Of a stretch of 64,000 bases of DNA, positions 1 through 59,779 are shown in pieces. The notes below the pieces were generated by a model. That model was not told the origin of the DNA, searched no databases, and saw only the letters and a program-made list of their open reading frames with translations. The translations under genes were made by a program, and so were the position numbers. The DNA comes from a virus. The stretch lies in IMG/VR virus record IMGVR_UViG_3300010371_000036, positions 1-64,000 of that record; one strand, given 5' to 3'. Positions within the stretch are counted from its first letter, which is position 1. Each line of letters opens with the position of its first letter.

Positions 1-959
1 GGCGCGGGGACCGGAGCGGGCGCGAGGGCGAGCGCCCGGACGGAACCCGGGTTCCGTTTCGACCGAACGATCTCCAGGATGAGGTTCCTCGACCGCCCGT
101 GCGCGCGAAAGCCGATCACCGAGTGCCGGTCCGGCTTCGCGCAGAGCTCGCAGCGGTCACACGTCATCCCCGCCGAGGTCTGCGCCGGGCAGACGACGAT
201 CGCCCGCCCCGCCGGCGTCCGGTTCCCCCGGTCCGGCGCGTCCGCCGGCAGGAGGCACACGACCGGGTGGGCGAACTCCTCCCGCCCGGGCGGCCGCGGA
301 CCGAGGAGCGCGTCGGCGTGCTCCGGCGAGTCCGCCGAGAGGTTGACGACGAACCCCCTCCCCCGCGCCCAGCGGTACGCGTCGAGCTGCTCGGGGCGCG
401 AAACCTTGTGCGTATAGGTGAATCCGCGCCGCCCCGCGCTCGCGCGGACGAGGGCGACGAACTTCGCCATGTCGAGCTCCTCGCCGGCGCCGGCGAGGTC
501 TCCCGCCTCGTTGTGCCTCCAGAGCTGGCCCCTCGGCAGGGCGCGGACCTGGAGGAGGAAGTCCTCGAACGCGAGGCCCTCCGCGGCGCCGGAGGAGAGG
601 CGCCGCCAGTGCATCCCGAGGTAGGAGTAGTCGGCGTAGCAGCCGGCGTCGTAGAGCCCGCAGCTCGGGGGGCAGGTCCCGCACTCGGAGATCGAGACCG
701 GGATCGGCCCCGTCTTCGCGTTCTGGCTGACGCGCGTGAAGAAGACCCGCCCGCGCGGCGCCGCGTCCTCGCGCCTCCGGATCCCCGCGAGCTTCTCCTC
801 GACGCTCTTGCCGGCCCAGTTCCCGTAGCGCGCCCGGCACGCGGCGCAGGACCGGACCGGGAGCCCCCGCTTACCGATGAAGGCGTCCGGGTAGGGCTTC
901 TCCTCGTAGCACTGGGCGCAGCGCCGGAGCTCGCCCTCGGGGAGCCGGAGGACGCTCAC
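1..959 (-). CDS. Gp88-like Cys-rich phage protein (partial, runs off window start)
   Basis: Not in the ORF track because it has no stop in the window. My translation from GTG 959 (overlapping the upstream TGA) gives NAKTGPIPVSISECGTCPPSCGLYDAGCYA...WRHNEAGDL...GFTYTH...GFVVNLSADS...VVCPAQ...TCDRCELC...IGFRAHG, a pattern I recognise from phage Gp88-like proteins. Confidence 0.7.
   Translation of the reverse strand, partial: MSVLRLPEGELRRCAQCYEEKPYPDAFIGKRGLPVRSCAACRARYGNWAGKSVEEKLAGIRRREDAAPRGRVFFTRVSQNAKTGPIPVSISECGTCPPSCGLYDAGCYADYSYLGMHWRRLSSGAAEGLAFEDFLLQVRALPRGQLWRHNEAGDLAGAGEELDMAKFVALVRASAGRRGFTYTHKVSRPEQLDAYRWARGRGFVVNLSADSPEHADALLGPRPPGREEFAHPVVCLLPADAPDRGNRTPAGRAIVVCPAQTSAGMTCDRCELCAKPDRHSVIGFRAHGRSRNLILEIVRSKRNPGSVRALALAPAPVPA
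39..58. repeat. 20-bp palindrome copy 1 (last base mismatched), inside CDS, read RNPGSV
   Basis: GACGGAACCCGGGTTCCGTT. Confidence 0.95.
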
Positions 960-1156
960 TTGAGGACCGAGGCGAGGTAGGCGTCGAGCGCCTTCTTCGC
1001 GTCGAGGAGCGCCTTCCGCGCTTCGACGGTCCTCAGGGAGACCCGGTCTAGCTCCCGCCGCTTCTCTCGCTCCTCCTCGACCGCGACGGCGTCGGCGTTC
1101 ACCGCGTCCTCGAGGGCGGCGGTCAGCTTCTCGATCTCCCCTTCCGTCTTGCTCAT
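956..1156 (-). CDS. hypothetical coiled-coil protein (MSKTEGEIEK...)
   Basis: ATG 1156 lies 10 nt after a GCGCGGCAT motif; stop overlaps the next GTG. Confidence 0.7.
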   Translation of the reverse strand: MSKTEGEIEKLTAALEDAVNADAVAVEEEREKRRELDRVSLRTVEARKALLDAKKALDAYLASVLK

Positions 1157-1176
1157 GCCCCGCGGGATGCCGCGCT

Positions 1177-1413
1177 CTACGGCGCGCCTCCGTCGAAGAG
1201 GAGGACCCGCCCGTCGGGGCGGTAGCAGTCGCACGACCGGTATCCGCCGTCCGAGCAGTGGTAGACGCCGCCCGCCGCGGCGCACCCCGCCCGCGCCGCC
1301 GACCAGGCCCGCTGCTTGTACGCGACGAGTCCCGCCGCGAGAGCGAGGACGAGGGCCGCGGCGGCGAACCTCACGGCGGCGGCCCGGCGCCGATCCTCCG
1401 CAAACGAGCTCAC
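1177..1413 (-). CDS. small membrane-anchored Cys-containing protein
   Basis: GTG start overlapping the upstream TGA; hydrophobic segment FAAAALVLALAAGLVAY. Confidence 0.6.
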   Translation of the reverse strand: MSSFAEDRRRAAAVRFAAAALVLALAAGLVAYKQRAWSAARAGCAAAGGVYHCSDGGYRSCDCYRPDGRVLLFDGGAP

Positions 1414-2743: not shown

Positions 2744-5124
2744 CAGACCCTCCGGCGCGGGTAAAGCGCGACCGCCTTGACGAGAACGCCCGAGAACTCA
2801 CTCTCCAACTCGCTCGCGGACGGAACCCGGGTTCCGTCCTTCCGGAGGTTCTCCCAGATCGCCCGATCGAGCGCCCGCGCCTTCTCCGTAAACGTGAAGC
2901 CGCGGGCCCACTCCATCGTCTTCGTCGCCTCCGGGACCGTCGTCCGGAACCGCCCCGTCCACTCGAGCGAAGCGACGACGTTGTCGACGAACTCCTCCGG
3001 CATCGTCGGGCGGAGCCGCGGCAGACGGAGGTCCCGCCTGTAGACGTCACCGAGCGCGTCCCGCTCGTAGTAGACGACCGAGACGCCGATCGCGAGGCAC
3101 TCCATCATCGAGACCGAGAACGTCTCGCACGGCATCGGCGGGTCGAGCGGGAACGGGAAGACGCTCGCCTCGGAGAGCTCCCGGAGGACCTCCGCCCGCG
3201 AGAGGTTCCCGAGGAACCGGACGGCGCTCATCTCGGGTCGGATCGGGGCGATCGTCTTCAGAACCCGATCGGTGCGGAGTCCCTGCCGGCACGCCTTCCC
3301 CGCGTAGTGGGTGAGCCAGCCGGCGACGTCGCCGACGACGTGGAGCGTCGCCTCGGGGAACCGGCGGACGATCTCCGGCCACGCCTCGAGGAGCTCGTGA
3401 AGCCCCCGACTCGCGCTCGTGTGGTAGACGCAGCGGCCGCGGACCGGGCGGTAGTCCGGGAGGTCCGGCTGGATCGCGTTCGGCATCACGTACCAGGGCG
3501 CCTCCCCGTCGTAGACCGTCCGGAGCGCGTCGGCCGCGTACCGGCTCGGCGCGAGGTTCACGTCGGTCCACTCGAACGCGCCCGGGTGCGGGACCTGGAA
3601 CGTGTGGTGCGAGGCGACCCGGAGGCAGCCGGAGACGCCGACGAGCGGACTCGTATCGTAGTACGCGACAAGGACGTCGCGATCGCCGTCCTTGTCGAAC
3701 TCGGAGAGCGGACGGTAATCGGCCCCTCCGACGTCCGTCTTCCCCGTCCACTTGAACGTCGAGTACGCCCGGACCTCGTAGCCGAACTTCGGGAGCTCCC
3801 GCACCAGGCCCATGAAGCCCGCCCGGCAGCCGCCGCCAGAGTTCGAGTCGAAGGGCCTGTTGACGTCGATCGGCTCCGGGCCGGACGCGTACGGCGTCAG
3901 CACGAGGTCGATCCGCGCCTTCGCCTTCACCTCGGCGCGGACGCTCGGCGCCGGCGCCCGCTTCGCCGCGACCCCCTCGACGAGGTAGCCCTCGAGCCTC
4001 TTCGCGAGCACGCGCCAGTCGTGCCTCCGCGCGTGCTCCGCCCCGATGTCCGCCACCTTAAGCCGGAGCTCCTGACTCTGGAGAGCCCCGACGACGAGCG
4101 TCCGGAAACTATCCATCCGCTCCCCGACCGGGTGCCGGACGACCGCCGCCGCGTTCCCGTGGACCTCCTCGAGGCAGTCCGCCGAGGAGATGACCGGGAA
4201 GGCGCCGGCGGCGCACGCCTCGAGCGTCGCGACCGAGAACGTCTCGGTGAACGCGAGCGGCGCGCACGGGTAGGCGAAGACCTCCGCCTCGCAGAGCTCC
4301 TTGACGAGCTGTCGGTGCGAGACCCCGCCGACGCGCGTGACGCCGTGCCCCTCGAGCCGCCGGAGCGCGTGCCGGATGTAGAGCGCCCGGCGCGTGCACT
4401 CGTGGTCGACCGGACCCCCGAACCGCTTCGAGGGGTCGCAGTGGTAGGCGAGCCACGTCTCGAGGCTCTGGTAGTAGATCCGAAGCTCCGCGTTCGGGAC
4501 CGCCGCCCGGATCTCCGGCCAGACCTGGAGGAGGAGGTGAAGGCCCCGGTCCGGCGAGGACGTGTACGCGACCCGCCCGGGGACCTTCTGCTTCAGTGCG
4601 CCGCGGAACTGCTCCGGGTAGCACCCGTTCGGCAGCACCCGGAACTTCGCCCGGGCCGCCTCCGGGAGCGGCCCCGCGACGTGCGCCTTCGCCGTCTCGC
4701 TCGGGACGAGGTAGAGGTCGACGAACGCGTCGAAGCCCGCCGTCTCGTACTCGAAGGAGTCGATCCCGAAGGAGGCGACCTGGCGGTTGACGACCCGGAG
4801 CGCGCCCGCCGGCGCCTCCCGAAGCGCGTTCGGGTTCGACGTCGCGATGACGGCGTCCCACGCTACGCCCTTGCTCCCGATGTCCCAGGCGGAGAAGTCG
4901 AGGACCTGAACCCCGTCGTACGACGCACCCTCCTCGCCGACCGCGTGGCAGTAGAGCGTCACCTCGTGGCCGAGCGCCGCGAGCTCCTTCGCGTAGTAGA
5001 GGCAGACGAGGTCCGTCCCGGTCAGCCCCGCCTTCCCGCCCTCGAGGTCATCGAAGTCGAGCGGCGCCCGGTGCTGCCCGAAGGCGACGGGCGCGTAGAG
5101 AAAAGCGATCTTGAGCTTGTTCAC
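2740..5124 (-). CDS. tandem double GT4 (GT-B) glycosyltransferase
   Basis: GTG 5124 start; two repeats of YTSSPDRGL/YHTSASRGL...ETFSVATLEA/ETFSVSMMEC. Confidence 0.85.
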   Translation of the reverse strand: MNKLKIAFLYAPVAFGQHRAPLDFDDLEGGKAGLTGTDLVCLYYAKELAALGHEVTLYCHAVGEEGASYDGVQVLDFSAWDIGSKGVAWDAVIATSNPNALREAPAGALRVVNRQVASFGIDSFEYETAGFDAFVDLYLVPSETAKAHVAGPLPEAARAKFRVLPNGCYPEQFRGALKQKVPGRVAYTSSPDRGLHLLLQVWPEIRAAVPNAELRIYYQSLETWLAYHCDPSKRFGGPVDHECTRRALYIRHALRRLEGHGVTRVGGVSHRQLVKELCEAEVFAYPCAPLAFTETFSVATLEACAAGAFPVISSADCLEEVHGNAAAVVRHPVGERMDSFRTLVVGALQSQELRLKVADIGAEHARRHDWRVLAKRLEGYLVEGVAAKRAPAPSVRAEVKAKARIDLVLTPYASGPEPIDVNRPFDSNSGGGCRAGFMGLVRELPKFGYEVRAYSTFKWTGKTDVGGADYRPLSEFDKDGDRDVLVAYYDTSPLVGVSGCLRVASHHTFQVPHPGAFEWTDVNLAPSRYAADALRTVYDGEAPWYVMPNAIQPDLPDYRPVRGRCVYHTSASRGLHELLEAWPEIVRRFPEATLHVVGDVAGWLTHYAGKACRQGLRTDRVLKTIAPIRPEMSAVRFLGNLSRAEVLRELSEASVFPFPLDPPMPCETFSVSMMECLAIGVSVVYYERDALGDVYRRDLRLPRLRPTMPEEFVDNVVASLEWTGRFRTTVPEATKTMEWARGFTFTEKARALDRAIWENLRKDGTRVPSASELESEFSGVLVKAVALYPRRRVW
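2819..2838. repeat. 20-bp palindrome copy 2, inside the glycosyltransferase C-terminus (DGTRVPS)
   Basis: GACGGAACCCGGGTTCCGTC. Confidence 0.97.
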
Positions 5125-7778
5125 GTTCCGACCTCCCGGTGCTCCCGGTACTCCGGGAGGCGTCCCATACCCGCGTCGATCATCAGGTCCTCGAAGAGCG
5201 CGTCCCACTGCTCGGCGACGCCGTCCCAGCGGAACGCGCGGAGCGCCTCCTCGCGCGTCTCCTCGCGCGTGTGGCCGCGGAACTGCCCCGGCACCGGGTC
5301 GTCGAAGTAGAGCGCCCCGACCGCCGCCTCGACGAACTTCTCCTGGTACTCCGCGGAGACCCAGTCCCCCTCGACGAGGCGGCCGTAGTCCCCGACCGTC
5401 TCCGGGAGCGCCCCGACCGGCGAGGTGACGATCCGGAGGCCCGCGGCGCGCGCCTCCATCGCGCTCATGCAACTCGTCTCCGGGTACCAAGTCGGGTAGA
5501 GCCACGCGCCGGCGGAGCACATCGCGGCGGCGAGCTTCTTCCGCGGGACGCGCCCGTGGTACCTCACGCCGAAGGAGCCCATACGGGCCATCGACCGCTG
5601 GATCACCTCGACGAGGAACCGGTGCTGCTGGTCCTTCGACTCCCCCGCCTGGAGCTTCCAGCCCTCGAAGGAGTAGTAGACGTCGAGCGTCGCCTCCGGG
5701 ACCCGCGAACGGATCGCCGGCCACATCTCGAGCAGCGCGCCGAGGCCGCGGTCCGGCGAGGAGCAGTAGATCGCCTTGTGCCGGTCGCGCGGAGGGTAAA
5801 CCGCGTTCGGCGAGTAGAGCGCCGGGTCGACGCCGTTGCGCGTGACGAAGACCTGGCTCTCCGGGATCCCGTGCTCGCGGACGAGGTTCCCCTTGTGCCA
5901 CTCCGAGAGCGCGAGGAACCGGTCGGCGAGGAGCGAGTACTCGTAGGTCATCCCGATCGCGGTCGTGTCGTGGCACCACATCAGGCGCGCCTTCGCCTCC
6001 CCCTGGGCGAGCAGGGGGGCGAGGCGCCAGGCGACGAGGACGTCGACCTTCGGCCGGAGGTCCGGCGTCCAGGTGACGTAGTCGACGTCGCCGGCGAACG
6101 TCCCCTCCTCCCCGGGCGCGCCGTAGACGGTCACGCGGTGACCCATCTTCCCGAGACGGCGCGCGAGCTCGACGACCGCCGTCTCGCTCCCGCCGTGCCC
6201 GTACCGCTCGACGAGGTCGGGGTTCCAGGGCTCGCGGGCGGGCCCGCACATGAACGCCACCGAGAACGCCTTCGAGGGGAATCGGAACTGACCGCTCAGC
6301 GTCGCGACGCCGATAGGCGTCGGGGCACCTTTCCACAACGGACGGAACCCGGGTTCCGTCTTCGGCGGTTCCATCGGGAGACCGGCGATCGCCCGGACCT
6401 GCATCTCCCGCCGCGCATCCGGCGTCAGGGCCGAGGCCATCTTCCCCAGGTACGCGTCGTCGTGGTGGGGCGCCGGGACGGGCGCGCTAAGGATCCCCTC
6501 ACCCGCCCGGAACGTCGTCGCCTTCCCGGACGGAACCGATCGGGAGACGCGGACGCTCACCTTCGCCTCGCCCGCCATGAACTTCGGGTCCGCCCCGGCC
6601 CCCGGGAGCACCCTCGACGCCTTCGCCGGCGCACAGAGCTTCGCCGTCGTGTAGCGCTTCAGGGCGAAGCGGAGCTGGGGGTGGTCCGGCACCGCCTCGA
6701 GCGCCCGCTCGGTCGCGCGGATGGCCGTGTCCCACTCCCCCTCGACCTCGGCGGCGGTCCGGATCAGGTCGTGGATGAAGAACGCGCGGTCCGCCGGATT
6801 GCGCCCGATCGGCGTCCGGGTCTCCGGCGCCGCGAGCGCGTTGAAGCCGTGCGCGATCACGTCGAACATCGCATCCGGCTCGCCGAGGAGGGTCCCGCGG
6901 AGCATCGCGAACCGCGCCCGCGCGTACTCGACCTCGAACGCCCCCGGCGCGTACCTCTCCGCCCGGTCGACCCAGTCGCGCGCCCGGTCGAGCCCCGCGC
7001 GCCCGACGTCCGCCGAGAACGCGCAGTCCGCGGCGCGCAGGCACGCGAGGGCCTGCTCCTCCGGCCAATTCGAGAACCCTACGTGCTCGGCGAAGTGCCC
7101 CTCCGCCTCCCGGTACCGGTGGGCGCGGTGGAGCTCGAAGCCGAGGTTGATGTGCGTCCAGGCGTCGAGGTGCCCGGCCGCGTACCACTTCTCGAGGATG
7201 GCGAGCGAGCGGCTCCGGGCCCCCGTCTCCGTCCGCTTGTGGACCCAGCGGACGTCCTTCATCCAGTAGTCGAGGCCCGGGTCGTAGCCGCCGGCTTGCT
7301 TCGTCAGCCCCTCGTGCGTCGGGTGCTCCCAGACCCAGGAGCCGTCGTTCGGGACGAGCCGCTCGCGCCACTGCTGCCGGGTGACCAGGCCCGTCGTCGG
7401 GTCGAACTCGTAGTCGTACGGCGCGATGAGGCGCGCCGCCGCCGCGCGGCGGTCCCCGAGCTTCGCGTTCGCCTCGCGGATCTCCCGCGCGATGTGCTCC
7501 GCCCCGACGACGACGTCGTCCGTATCCATCCACATGATGTACGGCTGGGTCGCGAGCTCAAAAGAGATGTTCCGCGTGTACGCGAAGTCGTCCCTCCACG
7601 AAGAGACCGTCCACGTATCCGCGACCTTCACCGTCCGCGCCTTCGCCTCGGACGGCGCATCGTCGTCGACGACGATGCAGACCTGCTCGACGTACGGGCG
7701 GACCGAGGCGACCGCCTGCTCGAGCAGCGGATCGTCTCGGAAGATCATGCAGAGGGAAACCGGGGCCTTCGTCGTCAT
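5121..7778 (-). CDS. GT2 + TPR-like + GT4 fusion glycosyltransferase
   Basis: N-terminal VSLCMIFRD...WRDDFAYTRN...WMDTDD...HE (SunS-like GT2), helical repeats, then GGSETA...SSPDRGL...YPETSCMSAMEA (GT4). Confidence 0.85.
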   Translation of the reverse strand: MTTKAPVSLCMIFRDDPLLEQAVASVRPYVEQVCIVVDDDAPSEAKARTVKVADTWTVSSWRDDFAYTRNISFELATQPYIMWMDTDDVVVGAEHIAREIREANAKLGDRRAAAARLIAPYDYEFDPTTGLVTRQQWRERLVPNDGSWVWEHPTHEGLTKQAGGYDPGLDYWMKDVRWVHKRTETGARSRSLAILEKWYAAGHLDAWTHINLGFELHRAHRYREAEGHFAEHVGFSNWPEEQALACLRAADCAFSADVGRAGLDRARDWVDRAERYAPGAFEVEYARARFAMLRGTLLGEPDAMFDVIAHGFNALAAPETRTPIGRNPADRAFFIHDLIRTAAEVEGEWDTAIRATERALEAVPDHPQLRFALKRYTTAKLCAPAKASRVLPGAGADPKFMAGEAKVSVRVSRSVPSGKATTFRAGEGILSAPVPAPHHDDAYLGKMASALTPDARREMQVRAIAGLPMEPPKTEPGFRPLWKGAPTPIGVATLSGQFRFPSKAFSVAFMCGPAREPWNPDLVERYGHGGSETAVVELARRLGKMGHRVTVYGAPGEEGTFAGDVDYVTWTPDLRPKVDVLVAWRLAPLLAQGEAKARLMWCHDTTAIGMTYEYSLLADRFLALSEWHKGNLVREHGIPESQVFVTRNGVDPALYSPNAVYPPRDRHKAIYCSSPDRGLGALLEMWPAIRSRVPEATLDVYYSFEGWKLQAGESKDQQHRFLVEVIQRSMARMGSFGVRYHGRVPRKKLAAAMCSAGAWLYPTWYPETSCMSAMEARAAGLRIVTSPVGALPETVGDYGRLVEGDWVSAEYQEKFVEAAVGALYFDDPVPGQFRGHTREETREEALRAFRWDGVAEQWDALFEDLMIDAGMGRLPEYREHREVGT
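6341..6360. repeat. 20-bp palindrome copy 3, in the GT2/GT4 linker (TEPGFR)
   Basis: GACGGAACCCGGGTTCCGTC. Confidence 0.97.
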
Positions 7779-11154: not shown

Positions 11155-12071
11155 TTCGCACCTCTCAGCTTCCAGGTCGAGTGCTCGCGCCACCCGTCGT
11201 GCTCGAGGACGCCGGCGCGCCGGAGCTCGAGGAGGCGCCCGTCGAGCCGCGAGCGGGGGATCCCGAGCGCCGCGCGGATCGCCGCGCTCCCGGAGGAGCC
11301 GGCGCCGCGGAGGTACTCGACGATCCGCGCCTTCTCCGCCTCGATCCCCGCCCGGCGCCCGGCCCGGGTGTAGGACGGAACCCGGGTTCCGTCCGCGGGG
11401 CGGACCCTCGGCATCCGCGCCGTCTCCCGCGCGTCGACGAGCGCCTGAGCCTCCCGGAGCGGGACGCCCTCGAGGTAGAGCCCCGCGACCTCCTCGGCCC
11501 AGGCGTCGGCCTCCGCGTCGAACTCCTCGCCGAGGAAGTCGCTCGCCCGCCCCTCGCTCTTCCGCGAGTCCTCCCCGCCGCCGTTCTCCCCCTCCGCCTC
11601 CGCGAAGGAGGGGGCCTCGTTCATCCGCTCGCGGAGGTAGTCGACGAACGCCTCCCGCTCGCCGGGCGTCAGCTTCCGGAGGAGCCGCTCGAGGGCGCGG
11701 ACCTCGAGCTGTCGGACCCGCTCGCGGCTCATGTTCATCAGGCCGGCGATCTCCTCGAGCGCCGCGCCGCCCCGGTCCGCGACGTCGAGCGCGCACGACT
11801 CGGGCATGTCCTCGACCTCGCGCGACGGGAAGTTCCAGACGATCGTGTCGCCGCGCACCCCCGCGACGTCGAGGTAGAGGTGGTAGCGACACGAGACCAT
11901 GGGGCACGGCCGGCTCGTCCCCCGACAGTCCTCGCGGCCGGCGGGGAGCGCGTGGTCCGTCCCGTCCCGGAGGACGGGGAGACGCCGGCGACTCCGCCAG
12001 ACCCCGGAGTCGTCCCCCCGGACCCTCTCGCGCCGCGGGGCGCCCGCGCGGGTCCTCCTCGCGGCGCTCAC
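11151..12071 (-). CDS. Cys-rich sigma-70 region-4-like HTH DNA-binding protein with a C-terminal winged HTH
   Basis: DCRGTSRPCPMVSCRYHLYLDV...CALDVADRGGAALEEIAGLMNMSRERVRQLEVRAL. Confidence 0.8.
   Translation of the reverse strand: MSAARRTRAGAPRRERVRGDDSGVWRSRRRLPVLRDGTDHALPAGREDCRGTSRPCPMVSCRYHLYLDVAGVRGDTIVWNFPSREVEDMPESCALDVADRGGAALEEIAGLMNMSRERVRQLEVRALERLLRKLTPGEREAFVDYLRERMNEAPSFAEAEGENGGGEDSRKSEGRASDFLGEEFDAEADAWAEEVAGLYLEGVPLREAQALVDARETARMPRVRPADGTRVPSYTRAGRRAGIEAEKARIVEYLRGAGSSGSAAIRAALGIPRSRLDGRLLELRRAGVLEHDGWREHSTWKLRGAK
11374..11393. repeat. 20-bp palindrome copy 4, in a CDS linker (DGTRVPS)
   Basis: GACGGAACCCGGGTTCCGTC. Confidence 0.97.
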
Positions 12072-15923: not shown

Positions 15924-15948
15924 CGAGGATCAGAACTGGAAGTGGCAT
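15625..15948 (-). CDS. chorismate mutase (AroQ/type II), overlapping its neighbours
   Basis: EEARRDLDAIDAAIVSLLRIR...IAHRK...VAVYDPERERVI matches the AroQ pattern R-x2-ID-x-ID-x2-I-x2-LL-x2-R...K...DPxRE. Confidence 0.8.
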   Translation of the reverse strand: MPLPVLILDAQVEEARRDLDAIDAAIVSLLRIRLRKSIAIAHRKAALGVAVYDPERERVIVERVEAGAVRDLYGGLVAGCRAAGEAAVSSPVDGGDPSAPADGSQGR

Positions 15949-16460
15949 CGGGGGCACTCCCGCGCGAGGTGCATCCCGCCCGGCTCGAGGTTCTTGAACT
16001 CCGGCGGGGCGCTCGGGGGCTCGATGCGCGCCAGGAGCAAGTCGAGGTCCTTGTCCTCGTAGTTCGTCGCGAGGAGGTCCCCGTCGTCGCGGAGCGCCTT
16101 GAGCAGCGACGCGAGCTGCACGTCGTCGTAACTCGCGAGGTCGCTCGTCCGGTTGTCGAGCGCCAAGATCTTCCGGGCCTGGCGCTCGGTGAGCGAGTGG
16201 AGCTCGACGGGGATCTTCTTCATCCCGAGCTCCTTCGCCGCCTTCCAGCGGTGGGAGCCGACGAGGATCTGATTCGTCTCCTGCCAGACGAACACCCGCC
16301 CGTAGAACCCGACCTCCTCGATGCTCCGCTTGATCGCCGGGACGTTCCCGCGCCGGGCGTTCTCCGGGTGGGGGGCGATTGCGTCGATCGCGACGACCTT
16401 CTTCACCCCCTCGAGGATCTGCGGGATAGGCGCCTTCGTCTTCTTCTCAGCTCTCGCCAT
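15930..16460 (-). CDS. ParB/Srx-like N-terminal domain protein with a C-terminal CPxC
   Basis: PHPENARRG, IKRSIEEVGF, ILVGSHRWKAAKELG, LALDNRTSDLA. Confidence 0.85.
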   Translation of the reverse strand: MARAEKKTKAPIPQILEGVKKVVAIDAIAPHPENARRGNVPAIKRSIEEVGFYGRVFVWQETNQILVGSHRWKAAKELGMKKIPVELHSLTERQARKILALDNRTSDLASYDDVQLASLLKALRDDGDLLATNYEDKDLDLLLARIEPPSAPPEFKNLEPGGMHLARECPRCHFQF

Positions 16461-20005: not shown

Positions 20006-20488
20006 TCACGAGACGCCTACCCTCTCCATCACCAGCTCGACGAACGCGACGAGCTTCTCCCGGTCCGGGACGTTCGCGGCGCGCGCCAGGGCGACGACGA
20101 CGTCGCGGTGCCGCGCGTGCGGCCTCTTCTCCCGCAGCGGGAGGGCGACGAGCGCCTTCCTCCCCCGGTCGACCCGGACCGCGAGCGCGCCCGTCCCGGC
20201 GGCGACCTCCGCGACCCGGCGGACCTCCTCCTCCGGTACGCCCTCGGGCGGGGCGACCCAGACGATCGCGCCGTCGACGTCGAAGGGCGTCCGATCCCAG
20301 GCGTGGTGGCCGGGGCCGATCGTGACGAGCGGGACGGCCCCGACGACGGGCCGGGACTCGAGACGGAACCCGGGTTCCGTCCGCGGGGCGGGGAGGTCGC
20401 CGTCGAGGAGGTCGCTCTCGATCGGGGGGCCGAGCGTCTCGGAGAGGACCTCGATCCGGGGCGCCGGCTTCTTCGGCTTACGGGCCAT
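20006..20488 (-). CDS. hypothetical protein, possibly a detached SbcD C-terminal domain
   Basis: ATG 20488; GAIVWVAPP...GALAVRV. Confidence 0.55.
   Translation of the reverse strand: MARKPKKPAPRIEVLSETLGPPIESDLLDGDLPAPRTEPGFRLESRPVVGAVPLVTIGPGHHAWDRTPFDVDGAIVWVAPPEGVPEEEVRRVAEVAAGTGALAVRVDRGRKALVALPLREKRPHARHRDVVVALARAANVPDREKLVAFVELVMERVGVS
20362..20381. repeat. 20-bp palindrome copy 5, inside CDS (TEPGFR)
   Basis: GACGGAACCCGGGTTCCGTC. Confidence 0.97.
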
Positions 20489-38192: not shown

Positions 38193-38198
38193 CCTCGA

Positions 38199-39325: not shown

Positions 39326-39329
39326 CTCG

Positions 39330-39349
39330 GACGGAACCCGGGTTCCGTC
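39330..39349. repeat. 20-bp palindrome copy 11, directly after a TAG stop
   Basis: GACGGAACCCGGGTTCCGTC. Confidence 0.97.
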
Positions 39350-39586: not shown

Positions 39587-40099
39587 TCAGGCGACGAGGG
39601 CAGCGGAGATCTGCCGCGCGACGCTCTCGAGGCGGATGAGGCGGCTCGTCGTCCTCCGGCTCCGCGCGACGTGCTCGCCGAGGAGCTGGGCGAAGAGGCG
39701 CGGCAGGTGCTCGACGTCCTCGACGAGGAGGTCGCCGTCCTCGGCCCAGCGGGTCTGAACGACGACGCGCCCGGCGCGGACGACCGTCTTCGCCATCTCG
39801 AGCCGCCCGCGCGACGTGACGACGAGGACCTCCCGGCCATCCCCGCCGCCGCGCGGCTCCGGGAGCGGCTCGTACGGCCGCCCCGCGTCCTTCGCCGCGA
39901 AGCAGCGGGCGCGCGCCGCCGGGTAGCCCGGGGCGACCTCGCGCAGGCCCTTCAGGGTCTCGCCGCCGAGGGCCTCGACGAGCGCGGTCTCCATCGCGCG
40001 GATGGCCGCGATCGCCTCCGCCCTCGCCGACTCCCGGGCCGCGAAGAGCTCGTCGCTTGCGAGGGCGACGTCTCCGAGGAGTTCGGGGATCTGGCTCAT
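39587..40099 (-). CDS. hypothetical protein (MSQIPELL...)
   Basis: ATGA overlap, GGAG SD. Confidence 0.65.
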   Translation of the reverse strand: MSQIPELLGDVALASDELFAARESARAEAIAAIRAMETALVEALGGETLKGLREVAPGYPAARARCFAAKDAGRPYEPLPEPRGGGDGREVLVVTSRGRLEMAKTVVRAGRVVVQTRWAEDGDLLVEDVEHLPRLFAQLLGEHVARSRRTTSRLIRLESVARQISAALVA

Positions 40100-40314
40100 G
40101 GCTTCGTTTCCTTCTCCCGCACTTTCGCACGGATCTCCCTGGCGCGCCCGAGCAATTCCAGCCGGGTCAGCCAGCGGTCGAACGTCTTTCGCGACACGTT
40201 CACCTCCTTCGCCGCAGCGACCGTGTCTCCCTTGTGCCGTCGGAGCAGTTCCGCCAGTGTCTTTTTCGCCTCCTCGGGCTCGAGAGAGACCATGGCGCCG
40301 AGCTGGGTAATCAC
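40096..40314 (-). CDS. Fis-type HTH DNA-binding protein
   Basis: LRRHKGDTVAAAKEVNVSRKTFDRWL. Confidence 0.75.
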   Translation of the reverse strand: MITQLGAMVSLEPEEAKKTLAELLRRHKGDTVAAAKEVNVSRKTFDRWLTRLELLGRAREIRAKVREKETKP

Positions 40315-44084: not shown

Positions 44085-46316
44085 CTACCGACGACTCCGA
44101 ACTCCGACGAGCCACTCCTTCCCGGTCAGCCAGCGCGCGCCGTCCCAGACCGTGACGTCGCGGTACCACTTCACGAAGTTCTCGACGGGCCGCCGGCCGT
44201 AGACCGCCGTGTCGAGGAGGTAGGCGAGCCGGCCCTTCTCCTTACCGTCCGCGGACCGGCAGAGCCGGCCCTTCACCTGCCCGAGCTTCTGGGCGTTGTT
44301 CCCCATCGGCGTCGCCGCGACGCCGCGGGCAACGGCGGGGACGTCGATCCCCTCGCCGATCGCCTGGTAGGTCCCGACCGCGACCCGGAGCTTGCCCTCC
44401 TTCAGCCGCGACTTGGTCCGGTCGAACTCCGCCGCCTCCGCGGCGCCGCCGAGCATCAGGCCGCCGGGGATCCCCATCTGCGCGACCTGCGCGTCGAGGT
44501 ACCGCGCGTGCTCGACCCGGTGCGTAAAGACGATCACCTGCTCGCCCGAGGCGACCGCGCTCCGGACGAGCGCGAGGACCTGGGCGTTGCGCGCCGGGTC
44601 CGCCGTCATCTTCTCGAGGAGCAGGTTGAAGTCCTGCCGGTACTTGTACCAGGGCGCCGAGAAGCGCGTCGGGACGCACGCGACCTCGACGTCGACGATC
44701 GACCCGGAGGCGAGGACCCGCTCCTCGGGGATCCGGCAGATCACCGACCCGATGAGGTCGTACGTGAAGAACTCGAGCCGGTCCTTCCGCGTGTGGTCCG
44801 CCGAGAGCCCGTAGCGCTTGCGCGCCCGGATCGGGTCGATCGCCGCGAAGACCGTGTCCGCGGGGGCGCGCTGGACCTCGTCGAAGAGGAAGACGTCGAA
44901 CGCGTCGCCGAGCTCCCCGGCGCCGGCGCGGAACCGGTTCGCCATCGTCATCTGCATGCAGAGCGTCAGCGGGCGGATCGTCTCGCGGTCCCCCTGGATG
45001 TGCCCGACCTCCTCCGGCTCGAGCCCGAGCTCCTCGACGGCGCGCTCGCGCCACTGCTTCAGGAGCGCCGTCGAGCAGAGCATCACGAGCGAGCGCCGCT
45101 TGTGGTGGGCGACGATCCCGTAGCCGGAGGTCGTCTTCCCCGAGTTATGGACAGCGACCCCGTTCGCGATAAACGCGTGCGCGTGTTCGACCTGAAGATC
45201 AAACGTCATCCGCTCGCCGGCATACCGGATCCCCCGGACCCGCTCCGGGACGAGCCGTGCCTCGACGTTCCGCTTCGACTCCGTGAGGTGGAGGCCCCGA
45301 TGCTCCTCGTGCGTGACGACCTCGAGGTTGTCCGGCTCGTTGTTCAGCGAATCGCCGTCCTTGTGATGTACGACCCACTCCTCCGGATCGAGGAACCTTA
45401 GGCCCTCGCGGCCGGCCTCGACCTGGCAGAGAAAGTCGAGAAGAGAGAGACCGTTCAGGCGCGCCTCCGCAATGAGGCGATGGAGCGGAACCGTCCACCC
45501 ACCCTTCGCCGGGTTCACACCGCGTCGTCCCGCAAACGGATGCTTCCGACAGACCCGGAGACGGTACCAAGGCTTTTTCGATAACCGCCCGCGCGGAATC
45601 CCGCCGTCGACGAGAACGTAGTCGCCCTCAACGAGATCACAGAGTGGGACCCAACCGAACGGGGTTTTGAACCGATGGTCGTCGGTCGCGAGAACCGGAC
45701 CGTAACCGCTAACGAGAACCTCGTAGACCGGCTTCAGCCCACTCTCGACCGCGCCCCCGAGACGCGCGAGTCGGACGGTCCCGTCATCAAAAGGCGCGCG
45801 AACGTACGTCGGAATCGACGGATCCCAGATCCGATTCTGGGCACGGCCCCCGTTGAACATCCGGACGACGTGGGAGAGCTTCATCTGGGAGCCCTTCCCC
45901 GCACGGTTTACGCCGATCAGTGCGTCACCGTCGATACAACCCGTCGGGGAGATGACGAGCCCGTGGTCGTGGGCGTCGGTCGCCGCGACCATCTCCCGCT
46001 GGTAGTCGCGCGGCGCCTTCCGGTGGTCGGGGAAGTCCGGCTCCGGGTGACGCCACGTCCGCCGGTCGTCGAGGACGGAACCCGGGTTCCGTCCGAGGAC
46101 CTCCTCGACCTTCGCGAGCCCGCCGCGGGGGACCGTCAGGTTCCCGTCCGCGTCGTGCTCCCAGGTCTTGTACGTCGGCGGCTCCTCGCCGGCTCGGCGC
46201 GGGTCCTTCCCGAAGTTCGGGTTCGCGTGCGTGAACGCGGACCGGATCGCCTGCGCCTGCGCCTCCGAGAGGCTCTCGAGCGGGACGCGGACCCGGCCGT
46301 CGACGACGATCCTCAC
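44085..46316 (-). CDS. SF2 (DEAD/DEAH-like) helicase containing an intein
   Basis: PRDYQ, SPTG|SGKT, DEVQR, GLSAD, GEGIDVP, QVKGRLCR. Confidence 0.9.
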   Translation of the reverse strand: MRIVVDGRVRVPLESLSEAQAQAIRSAFTHANPNFGKDPRRAGEEPPTYKTWEHDADGNLTVPRGGLAKVEEVLGRNPGSVLDDRRTWRHPEPDFPDHRKAPRDYQREMVAATDAHDHGLVISPTGCIDGDALIGVNRAGKGSQMKLSHVVRMFNGGRAQNRIWDPSIPTYVRAPFDDGTVRLARLGGAVESGLKPVYEVLVSGYGPVLATDDHRFKTPFGWVPLCDLVEGDYVLVDGGIPRGRLSKKPWYRLRVCRKHPFAGRRGVNPAKGGWTVPLHRLIAEARLNGLSLLDFLCQVEAGREGLRFLDPEEWVVHHKDGDSLNNEPDNLEVVTHEEHRGLHLTESKRNVEARLVPERVRGIRYAGERMTFDLQVEHAHAFIANGVAVHNSGKTTSGYGIVAHHKRRSLVMLCSTALLKQWRERAVEELGLEPEEVGHIQGDRETIRPLTLCMQMTMANRFRAGAGELGDAFDVFLFDEVQRAPADTVFAAIDPIRARKRYGLSADHTRKDRLEFFTYDLIGSVICRIPEERVLASGSIVDVEVACVPTRFSAPWYKYRQDFNLLLEKMTADPARNAQVLALVRSAVASGEQVIVFTHRVEHARYLDAQVAQMGIPGGLMLGGAAEAAEFDRTKSRLKEGKLRVAVGTYQAIGEGIDVPAVARGVAATPMGNNAQKLGQVKGRLCRSADGKEKGRLAYLLDTAVYGRRPVENFVKWYRDVTVWDGARWLTGKEWLVGVRSRR
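45144..45938 (-). mobile_element. intein (265 aa) with HNH endonuclease, in the SF2 Walker A
   Basis: Starts CIDGD, has TDDH (block B), VHHKDGDSLNNEPDNL (HNH), ends VAVHN before Ser. Confidence 0.92.
46074..46093. repeat. 20-bp palindrome copy 12, inside the helicase N-terminal domain (GRNPGSV)
   Basis: GACGGAACCCGGGTTCCGTC. Confidence 0.97.
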
Positions 46317-46576: not shown

Positions 46577-46596
46577 GACGGAACCCGGGTTCCGTC
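46577..46596. repeat. 20-bp palindrome copy 13, directly after a TAG stop
   Basis: GACGGAACCCGGGTTCCGTC. Confidence 0.97.
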
Positions 46597-46815
46597 CTAG
46601 CGCCCGAGGTCCTCGCGCAGCTTCGCGAACGCCCGCGCCTGCCGGATCCGCTCCTCGGCCGTGTAGACCGACTTCGCCGTGACGCCGTACCGCTTCGCGA
46701 TCTCCGAGGCCGAGACGCCCCGGCCCCGGAGCTCCGCGATCTCCGCGTCCCGAGGCGAGAGGACCGGACCCCGGTAGGTGACCTTCGCGCCGCGCTTCTG
46801 ACTGCTCCCGCTCAC
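46597..46815 (-). CDS. small HTH DNA-binding protein
   Basis: SPRDAEIAELRGRGVSASEIAKRYGVTAKSVY. Confidence 0.75.
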   Translation of the reverse strand: MSGSSQKRGAKVTYRGPVLSPRDAEIAELRGRGVSASEIAKRYGVTAKSVYTAEERIRQARAFAKLREDLGR

Positions 46816-46839: not shown

Positions 46840-47240
46840 GGCCTAGAACTCGCGATCCCGGATCGAGGGAGGGGAGCTAAGCGTTCGCCTCGCGGGATCC
46901 CGAAAACGACTACGCGCGCAGCGACACGCGGAGCGTGTCGCGCTTGTATTCTCGAGCGCAGCGAGAGAATACAAGGAAGAGAGGAAGAATCTCCTGACTC
47001 TCGCTCTCCTGCGGAGCGCTCCTGCGCGGAGCAGCTAAGGGGATACGGGACTACGCCGAGACCCCCCGTGTAAAGCGAATTCGTGTGGGGTCACGAAAGT
47101 ACGCGTCACGACGGCGCAATCCAACTCGCCGCAGAGCTCCAAACGCGTCGAGGGCGCCCGAGCCGTAGCCCGGACGCCCTCTCCCGACTCCCGGACGGAA
47201 CCCGGGTTCCGTCCTCCCCGGGGACGCGGCATCCCCCGGG
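46840..47240. promoter_or_regulatory. divergent non-coding control region with several inverted repeats
   Basis: Strand switch, lower GC, hairpins at 46921-46941 and 46943-46975, palindrome copies on both sides. Confidence 0.55.
47194..47213. repeat. 20-bp palindrome copy 14, upstream of the plus-strand operon
   Basis: GACGGAACCCGGGTTCCGTC. Confidence 0.97.
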
Positions 47241-55780: not shown

Positions 55781-55802
55781 CGATTCGTCTCCCGGGCGGG
55801 GA

Positions 55803-58800: not shown

Positions 58801-59729
58801 CCGATCCCCGCGATCTCGAGCATCGCCTGGATCGCGGCGCGCGAGAGCGTCGTCCCGTTCCCGACGGCGCCGGTCTCCCACGGGTCGAGGTGCGTCGGCG
58901 ACTGGGTCTCCCAGCCCCGGGAGATCACCTGCCAGCGGCTGTTCACCGTGTCGTAGCGGAGGACGCAGCGCCCGGTCGTCGGCTTGAGGACGACGTTCCC
59001 GCCGTTCCCGCTCCCGGTCGCGATCTGGTTCGCCGCCGTCGAGACCGACGTCGACTGGTCGACGAGCGTCATCTGGAACGCCGTCGTGTTGATGATGACG
59101 AGGTCGAGCCCAGCCTTCGCGCTCGCCGTCGTCGCGATCCCGTCGATCGAGAACGCCGCCGTCGGGCCGCCGACGAGGAGCGTCGAGAGCCCCGTCGTCG
59201 AGACGTTGGAGTTCAGGCCGTTCGAGAGGCTGATGTTCGAGAGCCCCTGATTCCCGCCCCCTCCCCCGCCGGTCCCGATGGCGCGGGTCGTCGCGTTCGC
59301 CTGAACCGTCCAGCCGGCGACCGGGTCCTGCTCGGTGACCTCGTTCGCGGCGATCACCGCCAGGCCCTGCGCCGTGAGGACGTTGACCTTGAAGGTCTCG
59401 GTCCACTCCGGGACGACGACGCCGTTCGCGTCCCGGCCGGAGCCGAGGACGCTCTGGTCGGAGACCCCGACGGTCACCATGAAGATGATGCACTTGCCGA
59501 GCCCCGCGAGCGTCGCGAAGGAGAAGGTCTTGTTCGTCTGATTCACCGAGAGCGACGCGTTGATCGTCGCCAGGTCGGCGACGCTCGTCGAGTCGTCGGC
59601 GGAGACGGCGCGGATCGCGAAGAACGCGGCCCCGGCCGGGTTCGCGAGGGCGCCGTTCACCGTCGCGCTCTGGGTGACGACCGCCGGCGTCGGGCCGCCG
59701 TTGATGGTGCAGGTGGGGGAGAGGCTCAT
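55803..59729 (-). CDS. large tail fibre/spike (beta-helix-like and LamG-like domains)
   Basis: ATG 59729; GAVGNGTT...AAIQA (pectate-lyase-3-like cap); C-terminal LADQSGNGHDATQ. Confidence 0.8.
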   Translation of the reverse strand: MSLSPTCTINGGPTPAVVTQSATVNGALANPAGAAFFAIRAVSADDSTSVADLATINASLSVNQTNKTFSFATLAGLGKCIIFMVTVGVSDQSVLGSGRDANGVVVPEWTETFKVNVLTAQGLAVIAANEVTEQDPVAGWTVQANATTRAIGTGGGGGGNQGLSNISLSNGLNSNVSTTGLSTLLVGGPTAAFSIDGIATTASAKAGLDLVIINTTAFQMTLVDQSTSVSTAANQIATGSGNGGNVVLKPTTGRCVLRYDTVNSRWQVISRGWETQSPTHLDPWETGAVGNGTTLSRAAIQAMLEIAGIGGQPPEVRPKFDRNNTWYRTDGPLCIRNPGTKLLGPYGAGTPGTGGNACTIGPANLSADGLFPVVTTAPQLSPDRTYAQRGSVWYGQFDAVQGGTNYDITGVDTCFLDRTFAMSGTPNLTFAAAGHTITRNVGSFVSDGFVVGQTVFVHGSASNDGVVGRLTAVSALVLTFASGIVNEGPSPSISVTAFGLLQFHYEQFFQLPAAVPGGQIWTLFGVGGGLPRTGSTQTVWVSIDSSQKITASIATSAGTVSVTSSNTVPNSASPSALGTHVSVDFDGTTGTLYVSVAGTTTASSAIGAGVIRQRTYEHTTIGALYGRFLRAFILRPCTASPGIYYAGGFKVGKAAVYTASFTPPTVEPSCDGNSSGVWSYAPKSSPAPSGAYRSDFHNRFLVGMAGWCAIPGFGRFTTGSPVWIKILNVSLGNLANVEIGHLTLFCQDTALEVDQTVDSSFHDLYFNGGQRGVTLSEFSYENRFNAITVSTGSGLSGNSWSIGVMANGGRSYFEKFNFLNSPLYQVATCAGGVFEGAFCGGMDGNRSVQNVFLAILGADGRTNDLRIRSWSPSDEGSFNPSIASAIFEFDTVGNVDMRDCDMAVNLLTAPAVKINNIVSGRFAPNNFGGSPSSPGIFAITNQTAPIRFDGWQFDLSPEVPWLDPANAGPLVHESHMLTRQIITTTADADVTIAPNDSFYGHLIGYDPGNWTGPHNFILPYAVAGIQLTVTSPAIWASTWLNTNGYGVTVPAGKTCVIESDGVGWYEISTSATTVLADPKSIFKKTRMPLLLDTRFGVTLQPTDSTKIATLADQSGNGHDATQGLGSAPLYFANGGVKNRPYIQNPTGQGKFLANVAANLVAAGAARTVYIVAELTGGTNAVLLDFRTSNPELSLYAHAAGNVVAGDGGGHSFQSTTMPTSGKHIYKFSFTTGLAACTVSVDGVAQTVTGPTPSALSTDSGGTGYRIFTNVGGAVFEGKLYFMCVVDESTTPVSGTEDTQMMAYLTANF

Positions 59730-59759
59730 GGGCTCCGCGTCTTCGAGGGGGAGGGCGCG

Positions 59760-59779
59760 GACGGAACCCGGGTTCCGTC
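59760..59779. repeat. 20-bp palindrome copy 15, intergenic in the tail region
   Basis: GACGGAACCCGGGTTCCGTC. Confidence 0.97.

Follow-up and report, generated by a model that had tools for sequence, protein, structure and literature searches.

A dispersed, lineage-specific perfect palindrome at the gene borders of an uncultured family of large tailed phages

The stretch of DNA analysed here (hereafter the window) comprises bases 1-64000 of the 72,288-bp IMG/VR virus record IMGVR_UViG_3300010371_000036 (71% G+C, CheckV completeness 45%), and it contains 15 copies of a palindrome that also turns up, with other letters, in its relatives. This dispersed palindrome is a trait of an uncultured family of tailed phages with genomes of ~87-107 kb, in which each lineage has one perfect version of 18-24 bp present in 6-20 copies. 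The copies are biased to gene junctions and stop codons, and selection acts on the nucleic acid, the encoded peptide being a by-product. The reading tentatively favoured here, to which we grant somewhat less than an even chance, is that the palindrome is bound, as duplex DNA, by a symmetric protein specific to each lineage and marks the borders between gene units. The IMG/VR records compared are labelled G000 (the source of the window) to G008, or G0 to G8 for short; L-numbers designate metagenome or genome loci carrying the motif or relatives of the family B DNA polymerase (PolB).

Copy number, repeat unit and authenticity

A motif search recovered 15 copies in the window, 12 exact and three with one mismatch (39, 30676 and 38208), where 0.02 would be expected by chance and none of 100 shuffles gave 15. 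A first-pass annotation made from the sequence alone had listed the same start positions and mismatch counts and had called for such a chance test. A sixteenth exact copy lies at 67154 of the same contig, beyond the window, and the reversed-pattern control gave no hit. Since the position preceding the copies (-1) is mostly G and the one following them (+1) mostly C, the repeat unit is strictly the 22-bp palindrome G-GACGGAACCCGGGTTCCGTC-C. The earlier statement that the copies share neither flanks nor target duplications has thus to be amended for these two positions, while its second half stands: flank comparison revealed no consistent target duplication around the window copies. According to our own gene calls, nine of the 15 copies are inside open reading frames (ORFs), where they are read as DGTRVPS or NGTRVPS (2819, 11374, 28120, 30676), RNPGSV (39, 32831, 46074) or TEPGFR (6341, 20362); all nine avoid Pfam domains and fall in tails or linkers. 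Frames, peptides and placement are as first described. The window matches no Rfam family, no tRNA gene was found in it, and the motif was not found in the literature searched (supplementary files were outside that search).

The copies are listed below by their coordinates in the window, with no strand assigned (aa, amino acid).

39..58: one mismatch (last base T); C-terminal tail of a DUF7227 protein (aa 301 of 318), RNPGSV; the G001 orthologue at 42788 is in another frame
2819..2838: exact; C-terminal tail of a GT4/GT1 glycosyltransferase (aa 763 of 794), DGTRVPS; the G001 orthologue at 45847 reads TEPGFR
6341..6360: exact; linker between TPR and GT4 parts of the 5121-8120 protein, TEPGFR; the G001 orthologue at 49517 reads NGTRVPS
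11374..11393: exact; sigma70_r4-bearing protein, past the domain (aa 227 of 306), DGTRVPS
20362..20381: exact; in the small ORF 20006-20488 that separates the SbcD-like gene from the SbcC-like one; the same junction carries a palindrome of G003's own version
28120..28139: exact; C-terminal linker of PolB (aa 854 of 961); counterpart of the palindrome that follows the PolB core in G005, G006 and G008
30676..30695: one mismatch; codons 2-8 of PolB, the stop of the upstream gene lying 7 nt before
32831..32850: exact; C-terminal tail of the intein-bearing UvrD-like helicase (aa 1083 of 1118), RNPGSV
36506..36525: exact; abuts the TAG stop of gene 36526-36681, then a terminator-like hairpin with T-run, then a promoter
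38208..38227: one mismatch (position 4); CTAG on both sides, after a TAG stop, then a canonical terminator and a promoter
39330..39349: exact; abuts the TAG stop of the Acb2/Tad1-like gene 39350-39565, then a canonical terminator and a promoter
46074..46093: exact; N-terminal part of the SF2 helicase ORF, RNPGSV
46577..46596: exact; abuts the TAG stop of the helix-turn-helix (HTH) gene 46597-46815; next ATG 37 nt on
47194..47213: exact; divergent intergenic region; first plus-strand gene (47244) 30 nt on
59760..59779: exact; intergenic, 11 nt past the stop of 59791-60804 and 30 nt ahead of the start of a 1308-aa ORF

A library adapter or an assembler could in principle scatter a short perfect palindrome, but the idea of an assembly, adapter or chimera artefact deserves practically no credence, as independent Logan contigs of the only public run found to hold the stretch (a soil DNA run that may be its source) bridge all nine copies between 27500 and 47300 with 0-1 differences, the exact motif recurs on two other IMG/VR contigs and on 49 metagenome-contig stretches from records with several different name prefixes, and the copies are in frame within ORFs and at orthologous places of diverged genomes. 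The artefact check proposed in the first-pass annotation is thereby answered and this explanation is excluded.

A trait of a phage family

Nearly all genes of the window are on the minus strand. Those for replication and repair encode PolB, DnaG, DnaB, intein-bearing UvrD-like and SF2 helicases, SbcC/SbcD-like proteins and a RecA-like protein; others encode sigma-region-4 and sigma-region-2 proteins, glycosyltransferases, a ParB_N-domain protein and baseplate proteins. The 50.6-kb record G001 links both ends of G000 through ~21 kb holding the genes of the major head protein, the portal and the large terminase, so that the source of G000 is, judging by this gene content, a tailed phage of roughly 94 kb or more. 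Its closest match among the PolB of cultured phages is 26% identical. Some 365 PolB relatives are present in metagenomes, many of them on contigs of 90-105 kb. A peptide-pattern search for close relatives of PolB found nothing; the related IMG/VR records were fetched through an alignment of PolB relatives, followed by retrieval of the whole records G003-G008.

Two records carry the very palindrome of the window, with up to two mismatches: G001 in 17 copies and G002 in nine. Among the other six records, five have a palindrome of their own and one has none:

G003, 96,181 bp (terminal repeats, complete): palindrome ACCGCGCCGCGCGGCGCGGT, 16 copies
G005, 107 kb (CheckV 98% complete): palindrome AGTTGTCGCCCCGGGGCGACAACT, 12 copies (11-12 depending on the pattern used)
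G006, 101.6 kb: palindrome CGTGTCTCCTCGAGGAGACACG, 14-15 copies
G007, 86.8 kb: palindrome TTGGAAACCCGGGTTTCCAA, 20 copies
G008, 64.8 kb: palindrome AGTCTCCCCGGGGAGACT, 6 copies
G004, 93.9 kb (CheckV 100% complete): no palindrome, 0 copies

The first-pass annotation had recommended looking for the motif in related phages, and it could not take into account that the trait is family-wide with lineage-specific sequences. All six lineage palindromes are perfect through the centre and none has an asymmetric loop. Their turnover between lineages involves changes on both arms; the palindrome of G007, for instance, differs from the window core by one change that is mirrored on both arms. At the linker where the window has DGTRVPS, PolB relatives of 50-56% identity carry RNPGS, ERVPG or ERDPG, peptides that suggest further palindrome variants. 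One 16-mer guessed from such linker peptides gave five single matches only in IMG/VR.

The top repeats of the palindrome-less G004 are a collagen-like coding repeat and a CRISPR array. Apparent repeats at L071 and L075 were rejected as CRISPR arrays and that of L073 as a coding tandem repeat. The two CRISPR-like arrays, at 21051-21940 of L071 (G004, the record without the dispersed palindrome) and at ~7418-8172 of L075 (G007), consist of 11-13 units of ~36-nt repeats with a period of ~73 nt and lie within ~10 kb of PolB.

Conservation of the nucleic acid

Where they can be aligned, G001 and G002 share 68-79% identity with G000 or with each other; these are BLAST identities, used instead of a semi-global flank alignment that gave 0.76 for orthologous flanks and 0.76 for unrelated pieces. 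Within the stretches shared with G001, all five G000 copies have a G001 copy at the same place, and two of the seven G001 copies in these stretches (19639 and 47113) are without a G000 partner. Over ten orthologous pairs (five between G000 and G001, and five between G001 and G002 that were paired by coordinates), 196 of 200 letters inside the palindrome are identical. The reading frame, in contrast, differs between G000 and G001 in all three orthologous copies located in ORFs (RNPGSV versus DGTRVPS followed by a stop, DGTRVPS versus TEPGFR, and TEPGFR versus NGTRVPS), the DNA remaining identical at 19-20 of 20 positions. Since the orthologous copies are read in different frames, the peptide is a by-product and selection acts on the nucleic acid, in agreement with the earlier claim that selection concerned the DNA.

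The first-pass annotation had also asked if the peptide is inserted or overwrites residues. At G001 47113 the palindrome stands in place of an equally long piece of a conserved ORF (TEPGFR where G000 has QSQELR); at the one polymorphic in-ORF site examined, it therefore overwrites and is no insertion of a mobile unit. Decayed copies are essentially absent, and there is no graveyard of them. The records G000, G001 and G002 together hold 42 copies with 0-2 mismatches. Over 268,735 nt, in which the metagenome loci had been fetched by exact match and three loci from the G002 contig were left out, 89 copies are exact and nine, two and one have one, two and three mismatches, respectively, whereas the three hits with five mismatches are at chance level.

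Position relative to genes

The positions of 110 copies, from eight records and six palindromes, were surveyed against 3200 random positions:

Stop of the upstream ORF 0-20 nt before the palindrome: 30% of copies, 3.7% of random positions
Stop of the upstream ORF inside the palindrome span: 11% of copies, 5% of random positions
Stop of the upstream ORF within ~100 nt after the palindrome (C-terminal tails): 25.5% of copies, 16% of random positions
ORF running on for >100 nt past the palindrome: 16% of copies, 59% of random positions

The copies are thus biased to gene junctions and stop codons. The distance to the downstream gene is variable, from 11 to >190 nt. Some junctions are occupied in several lineages by palindromes of different sequence: the SF2 helicase gene has a palindrome upstream in six of six lineages, and a palindrome comes just after the PolB core in four of five. 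The SbcD/SbcC junction is shared by G000 and G003, and the place after DnaG by several records.

In the window, a TAG stop is abutted by the copies at 36506, 38208, 39330 and 46577, and beyond it by the one at 67154. Recoding or readthrough of TAG was considered and rejected, as TAG is an ordinary stop used by 26 of 91 called genes and G001 copies follow TGA or TAA. A role as promoter element of the extracytoplasmic function (ECF) type, or of any type with a fixed distance, was rejected as well: the spacing to -10-like motifs is variable. In G007, eight of the 20 copies end 3-36 nt upstream, again at variable distance, of the promoter-like motif GGCATGATG, and these cases account for eight of the 46 hits to the motif (up to one mismatch), which stands 6-7 nt ahead of an ATG. 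The motif looks like the -10-only promoter of leaderless messages. On both strands of G007, GC-GGCATGATG followed after 6-7 nt by ATG occurs dozens of times; a related leader, CGCGGCATCTCCGGAGG-N4-ATG, is present in the window near 27300, with a variant near 46560.

Terminator-like and operator-like signals next to the palindrome

Several window copies are accompanied by other signals, the nearest of which are:

39285..39329 (approximate), minus strand: intrinsic-terminator-like canonical hairpin with T9, directly behind the 39330 copy
38162..38207 (approximate), minus strand: intrinsic-terminator-like canonical hairpin with T7, directly behind the 38208 copy
36424..36443, minus strand: inverted repeat TTTGGACA-N4-TGTCCAAA over the sigma-70-like promoter TTGGAC-N17-TAGGAT, downstream of the 36506 copy

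In two intergenic regions of the window a stop codon is followed by the palindrome, a canonical hairpin with T-run and a sigma-70-like promoter (TTGGAC-N17-TAGNNT) overlapped by TTTGGACA-N4-TGTCCAAA; the 36506 region has the same layout of palindrome, hairpin and promoter with a weaker T-run. Spacers between palindrome and terminator are 1-10 nt long. The G001 copy at 19639 also precedes a canonical terminator, and the orthologous site of G000 keeps the terminator without the palindrome. Since separate terminators made of a hairpin and a T-run follow copies in both G000 and G001, the palindrome is not itself the terminator, and a T-run is missing from most of its 3' flanks, so that most copies are not the hairpin directly followed by a T-run that defines an intrinsic terminator. 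The repeat TTTGGACA-N4-TGTCCAAA, whose spacer is variable, is also found at 10549-10568, 38124-38143 and ~39248-39266. Its four sites overlap sigma-70-like promoters with TTGGAC-N17-TAGAGT, TAGGAT or TAGGGT, and it looks like a classical operator at early promoters, separate from the dispersed palindrome.

Duplex-DNA site or RNA hairpin

In the favoured reading, the palindrome would be read as duplex DNA by a symmetric (dimeric), fast-evolving and probably phage-encoded protein, and the bound copies would mark the borders of gene units. Those after stop codons could act as roadblocks or insulators for RNA polymerase, and those a few bases upstream of promoters as occluding operators. The logic would be that of the stoperators of Cluster A mycobacteriophages, but with a palindromic site and in phages without integrase. 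Several observations speak for duplex DNA, among them that all six versions are perfect through the centre, that the half-sites of G006 vary independently and that divergent junctions are over-represented. The pair 7/16 of the G006 palindrome is T-A in nine, C-A in three, T-G in two and C-G in one of 15 copies, and the mismatched combinations are not depleted. Palindromes occupy six of 22 divergent junctions, 48 of 565 co-directional ones and three of 23 convergent ones (odds ratio of divergent versus co-directional 4.0, P 0.011), with gene calls that are approximate, based on G+C at third codon positions (GC3), and without G005, whose calls are poor (41 genes on 107 kb). The other hairpins of the window mostly have asymmetric loops, including the two canonical terminator-like hairpins with their GAGA loops. 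Also in favour are the letter-for-letter conservation of all positions, the tolerance and conservation of translated copies, the G007 copies near promoter-like motifs, the separate terminators behind several copies, the junctions occupied in several lineages by palindromes of different sequence, and a spacing that exceeds random evenness in G003 (P 0.013) and G007 (P 0.002). In the portions of the literature on which the comparisons here and below draw, stoperator motifs co-vary with their repressors (PMC6550527), and a dimeric protein is predicted on the 17-bp dyad repeats of Cluster O mycobacteriophages (PMC4351075). The first-pass annotation had already proposed a site for a dimeric protein; as a symmetric protein site this is still the best single reading, if not one that reaches even odds, whereas none of the binders that it named passes a family-wide test.

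Several points weigh against this reading. The excess of stop codons shortly before the palindrome is the kind of bias reported for the repetitive extragenic palindromic (REP) sequences and the TRIT motif of bacteria, which their authors both interpret as RNA elements (PMC3733652, PMC3152330). Wherever a terminator is present, the palindrome is on its transcribed side. The predicted RNA hairpin is stable (9 bp closed by a CCGG loop; -17 to -28 kcal/mol for the whole segment), and two rare variants, G002 1006 and L047 1332 (the latter at the outer pair), keep pairing through changes in both arms. The junction statistics depend on the approximate gene calls mentioned above. Evenness of spacing falls short of significance in G000 (P 0.21), G005 and G008. 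On the side of the protein, phyletic profiling found no gene that is in all palindrome-bearing records and absent from G004. This genome keeps the whole shared replication module as well as relatives of the Fis-type HTH and ParB_N proteins, yet it is without the palindrome. Judged on gene content, no binder is identified, and the candidates first proposed fail co-occurrence tests.

The first-pass annotation had overlooked the strong bias to gene borders and stop codons, which makes a REP- or TRIT-like RNA element a serious rival, if a less probable one. The palindrome would then be a 9-bp hairpin at the ends of cistrons. With or without the help of a sequence-specific RNA-binding factor, this hairpin would terminate, stabilise or insulate the message upstream of it, or adjust translation termination and coupling. 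The position survey agrees with this in the stops placed just before or inside the palindrome and in the scarcity of copies deep in ORFs, and so do the TAG stops that five window copies and the copy at 67154 abut or nearly abut, the variable distance to the downstream gene, the location on the transcribed side of canonical terminators, the stable fold, the coding of nearly all genes on one strand and the pairing kept by the double change of G002 1006. REPs are reported to be distributed in this way too, with a TAG that they supply and with copies inside UvrD and polymerase genes (PMC3733652), and TRIT is narrowly placed around the stop codon, its authors suggesting a factor that binds the conserved stem (PMC3152330). 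Nevertheless, a structure would not require a stem and "loop" conserved to the letter, all six lineage versions have a self-complementary centre, and mismatched arm combinations are not depleted in G006. Most copies are without T-run, and the termination signals are separate hairpins directly behind them. In addition, nine of the 15 window copies are translated, three of them conserved in G001, divergent junctions, where no transcript ends, are enriched, and no Rfam family was matched. The abutment to stops does not alone decide between DNA and RNA, because a tight packing of all signals can explain it under the duplex-DNA reading too.

If the duplex-DNA reading is taken further, the palindrome may be a private, lineage-specific "punctuation mark" of 18-24 bp in these uncultured soil phages. 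A fast-evolving phage protein dedicated to it would divide the genome into gene units and thereby control transcription, and perhaps replication or recombination domains. Pairs of palindrome and protein would then define specificity groups, like the immunity groups of repressors and stoperators but in lytic phages and with a symmetric site. This extended version is speculative and we consider it possible rather than probable. Were it true, the six specificities and the palindrome-less genome would form a natural series for decoding the pair. A phage protein that reads the sites would provide a new orthogonal set of DNA-protein (or RNA-protein) recognition; large lytic phages of high-G+C soil bacteria would also turn out to have a new level of gene regulation. 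The question is testable, since six palindromes in one family with a syntenic replication module, together with one complete genome without the trait, make a comparative series. With a larger number of family genomes, the protein that reads the sites could be named from co-variation, which could also tell recognition of duplex DNA from that of an RNA hairpin.

Host repeats, mobility and recombination

The possibility that the motif is a common REP-like element of the host, which the first-pass annotation had named as fatal to its reading, was examined in GTDB. Among the genomes of 185,579 species (one genome each, exact matches only), just two records contain the exact motif: a delta-proteobacterial metagenome-assembled genome with two copies 25 nt apart and a Streptomyces with one copy. 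For the exact motif, a host REP is therefore ruled out. The two delta-proteobacterial copies (L013, 4227-4291) have no clear coding signal and lie ~0.9 kb downstream of an AAA_25 gene. L013 shares no genes with the phages; tblastx gave low-scoring, G+C-rich matches only.

Genes for mobility were searched in the four records G000-G003, one of which is complete. None of the four has a Y1 transposase (PF01797, RAYT), in a search whose control was positive in six of 14 genomes and which leaves room for a host enzyme acting in trans; none has a tyrosine integrase/recombinase or a serine recombinase. A T7-like RNA polymerase was not found either, the control for that search being uninformative. The palindrome does not behave as a miniature mobile element of the MITE or RPE kind: the replacement at G001 47113 is of equal length, there is no consistent duplication and there are no decayed copies.

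A further explanation dispenses with a dedicated reader. The palindrome would be self-propagating or structurally maintained, spread or homogenised by the recombination proteins of the phage (RecA-like, SbcCD-like, UvrD-like), and its main consequence would be to serve as a linker for cassette exchange, like the PeSLs of T4-type phages, composite terminator/promoter motifs at the borders of indels (PMC4122927). The identity of copies within a genome and the complete G004, which does without palindromes, would fit such an element, as would the SbcC/SbcD-like and RecA-like proteins encoded by the family and the three intergenic regions of the window that repeat a module of palindrome, terminator and promoter. 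In the metagenome relative L034, two copies of the palindrome enclose a cassette of 2.6 kb (2754-5396) with two ORFs of 711 and 177 aa; at the corresponding place, between PolB and the upstream gene, the window has just one copy. Yet the same letters occur at orthologous places despite 68-79% identity, with no spectrum of decay, the G001 47113 palindrome replaces an equal length of ORF and is not inserted, and the four records have neither a Y1 transposase nor tyrosine or serine recombinases. Syntenic positions are retained across lineages with unrelated palindromes, and with 20 bp the palindrome offers little length to homologous exchange. The authors of the Cluster O study, in the portion of it used here, found few if any repeats at indels (PMC4351075). 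An element without reader is thus unlikely.

Candidate reader proteins

The first-pass annotation had named four candidate binders, three of which have a recognisable domain:

15930..16460, minus strand: ParB_N-domain protein, 176 aa (Pfam E 3e-6; PHROG "ParB-like partition protein" E 1e-31)
40096..40314, minus strand: Fis-type HTH protein, 72 aa, candidate reader, downstream of DnaG
46597..46815, minus strand: sigma-r4/LuxR-type HTH protein, 72 aa, between two palindrome copies, candidate reader

The Fis-type HTH protein is family-wide. Each of the six other family records (G003-G008) has a relative by profile search, and the recognition helices differ widely, but palindrome-less G004 is among these records, with two copies, which does not suit a binder. 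A palindrome precedes the start of the Fis-type HTH gene by 36 nt in G003 and by ~30 nt in G007, a lead that was noticed after the fact. The HTH protein at 46597-46815 has no relative in any other family record. The fourth candidate, at 30703-31935, had been called ParB-like; it has no ParB or other match in Pfam or PHROG, and its relatives are also present in palindrome-less G004.

The ParB_N-domain protein invites a specific scenario, in which the palindromes would be loading sites of the ParB/parS, Noc or KorB type from which the protein spreads for segregation, compaction or long-range silencing. Palindromic sites in ~16-20 copies per genome, partly inside genes, resemble the parS, NBS and OB sites of these systems, and profile relatives of the window protein exist in G003 (two), G004, G006, G007 and G008 (the curated Pfam search detected fewer than the profile search). 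The protein is only 176 aa long, however, and the N-terminal ParB domain is all that was recognised in it, with no HTH domain reported. G005 has 11-12 palindromes and no ParB_N relative, whereas G004 has a relative and no palindrome; the 30703-31935 protein, as said, is not recognisably ParB. No integrase was found in G000-G003, and nothing points to a life as a plasmid-prophage. The authors of the Cluster O description judged their own ParB-like proteins unlikely partners of the repeats, in the part of the text considered (PMC4351075). Sites of this type are consequently very improbable.

Other features of the window and its relatives

Some observations concern neighbouring genes. Both helicase genes contain inteins: Hint and LAGLIDADG domains in the UvrD-like helicase (32741-36301, minus strand), and a splicing domain with HNH in the SF2 helicase (44085-46511, minus strand). 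A small ORF of ~80 aa with a good ribosome site, at ~46305-46540 (minus strand), begins 37 nt past the 46577 copy and runs into the beginning of the SF2 helicase gene. The gene abutted by the 39330 copy (39350-39565, minus strand) encodes a 71-aa protein that matches the Acb2/Tad1 hairpin domain (Pfam E 9e-12) of the anti-CBASS/anti-Thoeris sponge family; a profile search found no relative of it in the other family records. An MT-A70 adenine methyltransferase is encoded at 10576-11193 (minus strand). Two gene groups are of modification type: 12440-14652 (minus strand), with an S-adenosylmethionine (SAM) methyltransferase beside an asparagine synthase-like amidotransferase, and 2740-8120 (minus strand), with two large multi-domain glycosyltransferases.

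Besides its 20-bp palindrome, G003 has five tandem pairs TGTCTAGACA-N3-TGTCTAGACA (1369-1391, 2739-2761, 7110-7132, 10817-10839 and 27221-27243), most of them after ACTAGCG. These look like paired operators of an early region, distinct from the palindrome.

Comparison with known systems

Dyad repeats of phages and palindromes that hug the stop codons of bacteria (REP, TRIT) have been described before, without a settled function. The ParB/parS, Noc/NBS and KorB/OB systems combine their sites with a ParB-family protein that has an HTH, a combination that is not found here.

The PeSLs of T4-type phages are, like the modules seen here, short conserved intergenic regulatory modules of a large lytic phage (PMC4122927). 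The likeness lies in the three modules of palindrome, terminator and early promoter and in the cassette indel of L034 bounded by copies. In contrast, PeSLs are described, in the portion of the text used, as composite and asymmetric, confined to hyperplastic regions and not in ORFs, whereas here a bare palindrome is distributed genome-wide and conserved in synteny.

TRIT is a palindromic terminator motif with 147 copies, restricted to Mycobacterium chromosomes (Gardner et al. 2011, PMC3152330). It shares with the phage element a palindrome conserved in sequence, a setting of high G+C and a very narrow position around the stop, partly inside the ORF; it differs, as far as descriptions and not sequences were compared, in that separate canonical terminators directly follow several of the phage copies.

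The REPs tagged with GTAG or CGTC are imperfect palindromes with an unpaired tag at one end and a short unpaired tail, most often located between ORFs that are co-directional or convergent (Di Nocera et al. 2013, PMC3733652). The likeness is considerable in the part of that work consulted: a stem of 8-9 bp with a 4-nt loop, ends GACG...CGTC, a distance of up to 20 nt from the 3' end of the upstream ORF with a variable distance downstream (as here), a TAG stop often supplied or abutted, and in-frame intragenic copies in genes of UvrD-type helicases and DNA polymerases. Nevertheless, the palindrome of the window is perfect over 20-22 bp, with the terminal CGTC paired to GACG. A REP has a high copy number in chromosomes, whereas the exact scan found two GTDB records (two copies and one copy), and the RAYT associated with REPs is encoded by none of the four records searched for PF01797. 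REPs are also heterogeneous and chromosomal, while the phage copies are letter-perfect and enriched at divergent junctions.

The stoperators of Cluster A mycobacteriophages number ~30 per genome outside promoters, some of them syntenic, with a lineage-specific motif and a proposed action on transcription elongation (PMC6550527). The location outside promoters, some syntenic positions and the lineage-specific motif are shared with the palindromes. Stoperators are, however, 13 bp long, asymmetric, oriented with transcription and bound by the monomeric immunity repressor of temperate phages, according to the portion of that description used. The site is palindromic here, no repressor was identified and no integrase was found in the four records G000-G003.

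The closest described case is the 17-bp dyad repeat of the Cluster O mycobacteriophages, Corndog and its relatives (Cresawn et al. 2015, PMC4351075), the likeness being one of kind and not of homology. In the portion of the description used, the repeats occur in >30 copies genome-wide with invariant arms, about one third of them inside ORFs and another third close to gene starts, with the remainder between genes; most sites do not coincide with predicted promoters. These phages lack an integrase and parAB, are not obviously temperate and encode proteins with a ParB-like domain and glycosyltransferases. The function of the repeat was not known to its authors. The first-pass annotation did not recognise the palindrome from any described system; this holds for the motif itself but has to be qualified by such a similar repeat, itself without explanation. 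The same combination is seen here: many invariant dyad copies, partly in ORFs and mostly not at promoters, in phages in which no lysogeny genes were found. The sequences are unrelated, as are the phages (the best cultured PolB match being 26% identical), and where Cluster O has 7-bp arms around a variable 3-bp spacer, the palindromes of 18-24 bp are uninterrupted and perfect through the centre. Their sequence turns over between lineages while some junctions stay, unlike in Cluster O, and a bias to stop codons was measured here, none being found in the Cluster O description consulted. What is new is thus the trait in a large uncultured family unrelated to cultured phages, with uninterrupted perfect palindromes, together with a turnover of their sequence at retained junctions, orthologous copies that shift frame and a measured bias to gene borders.

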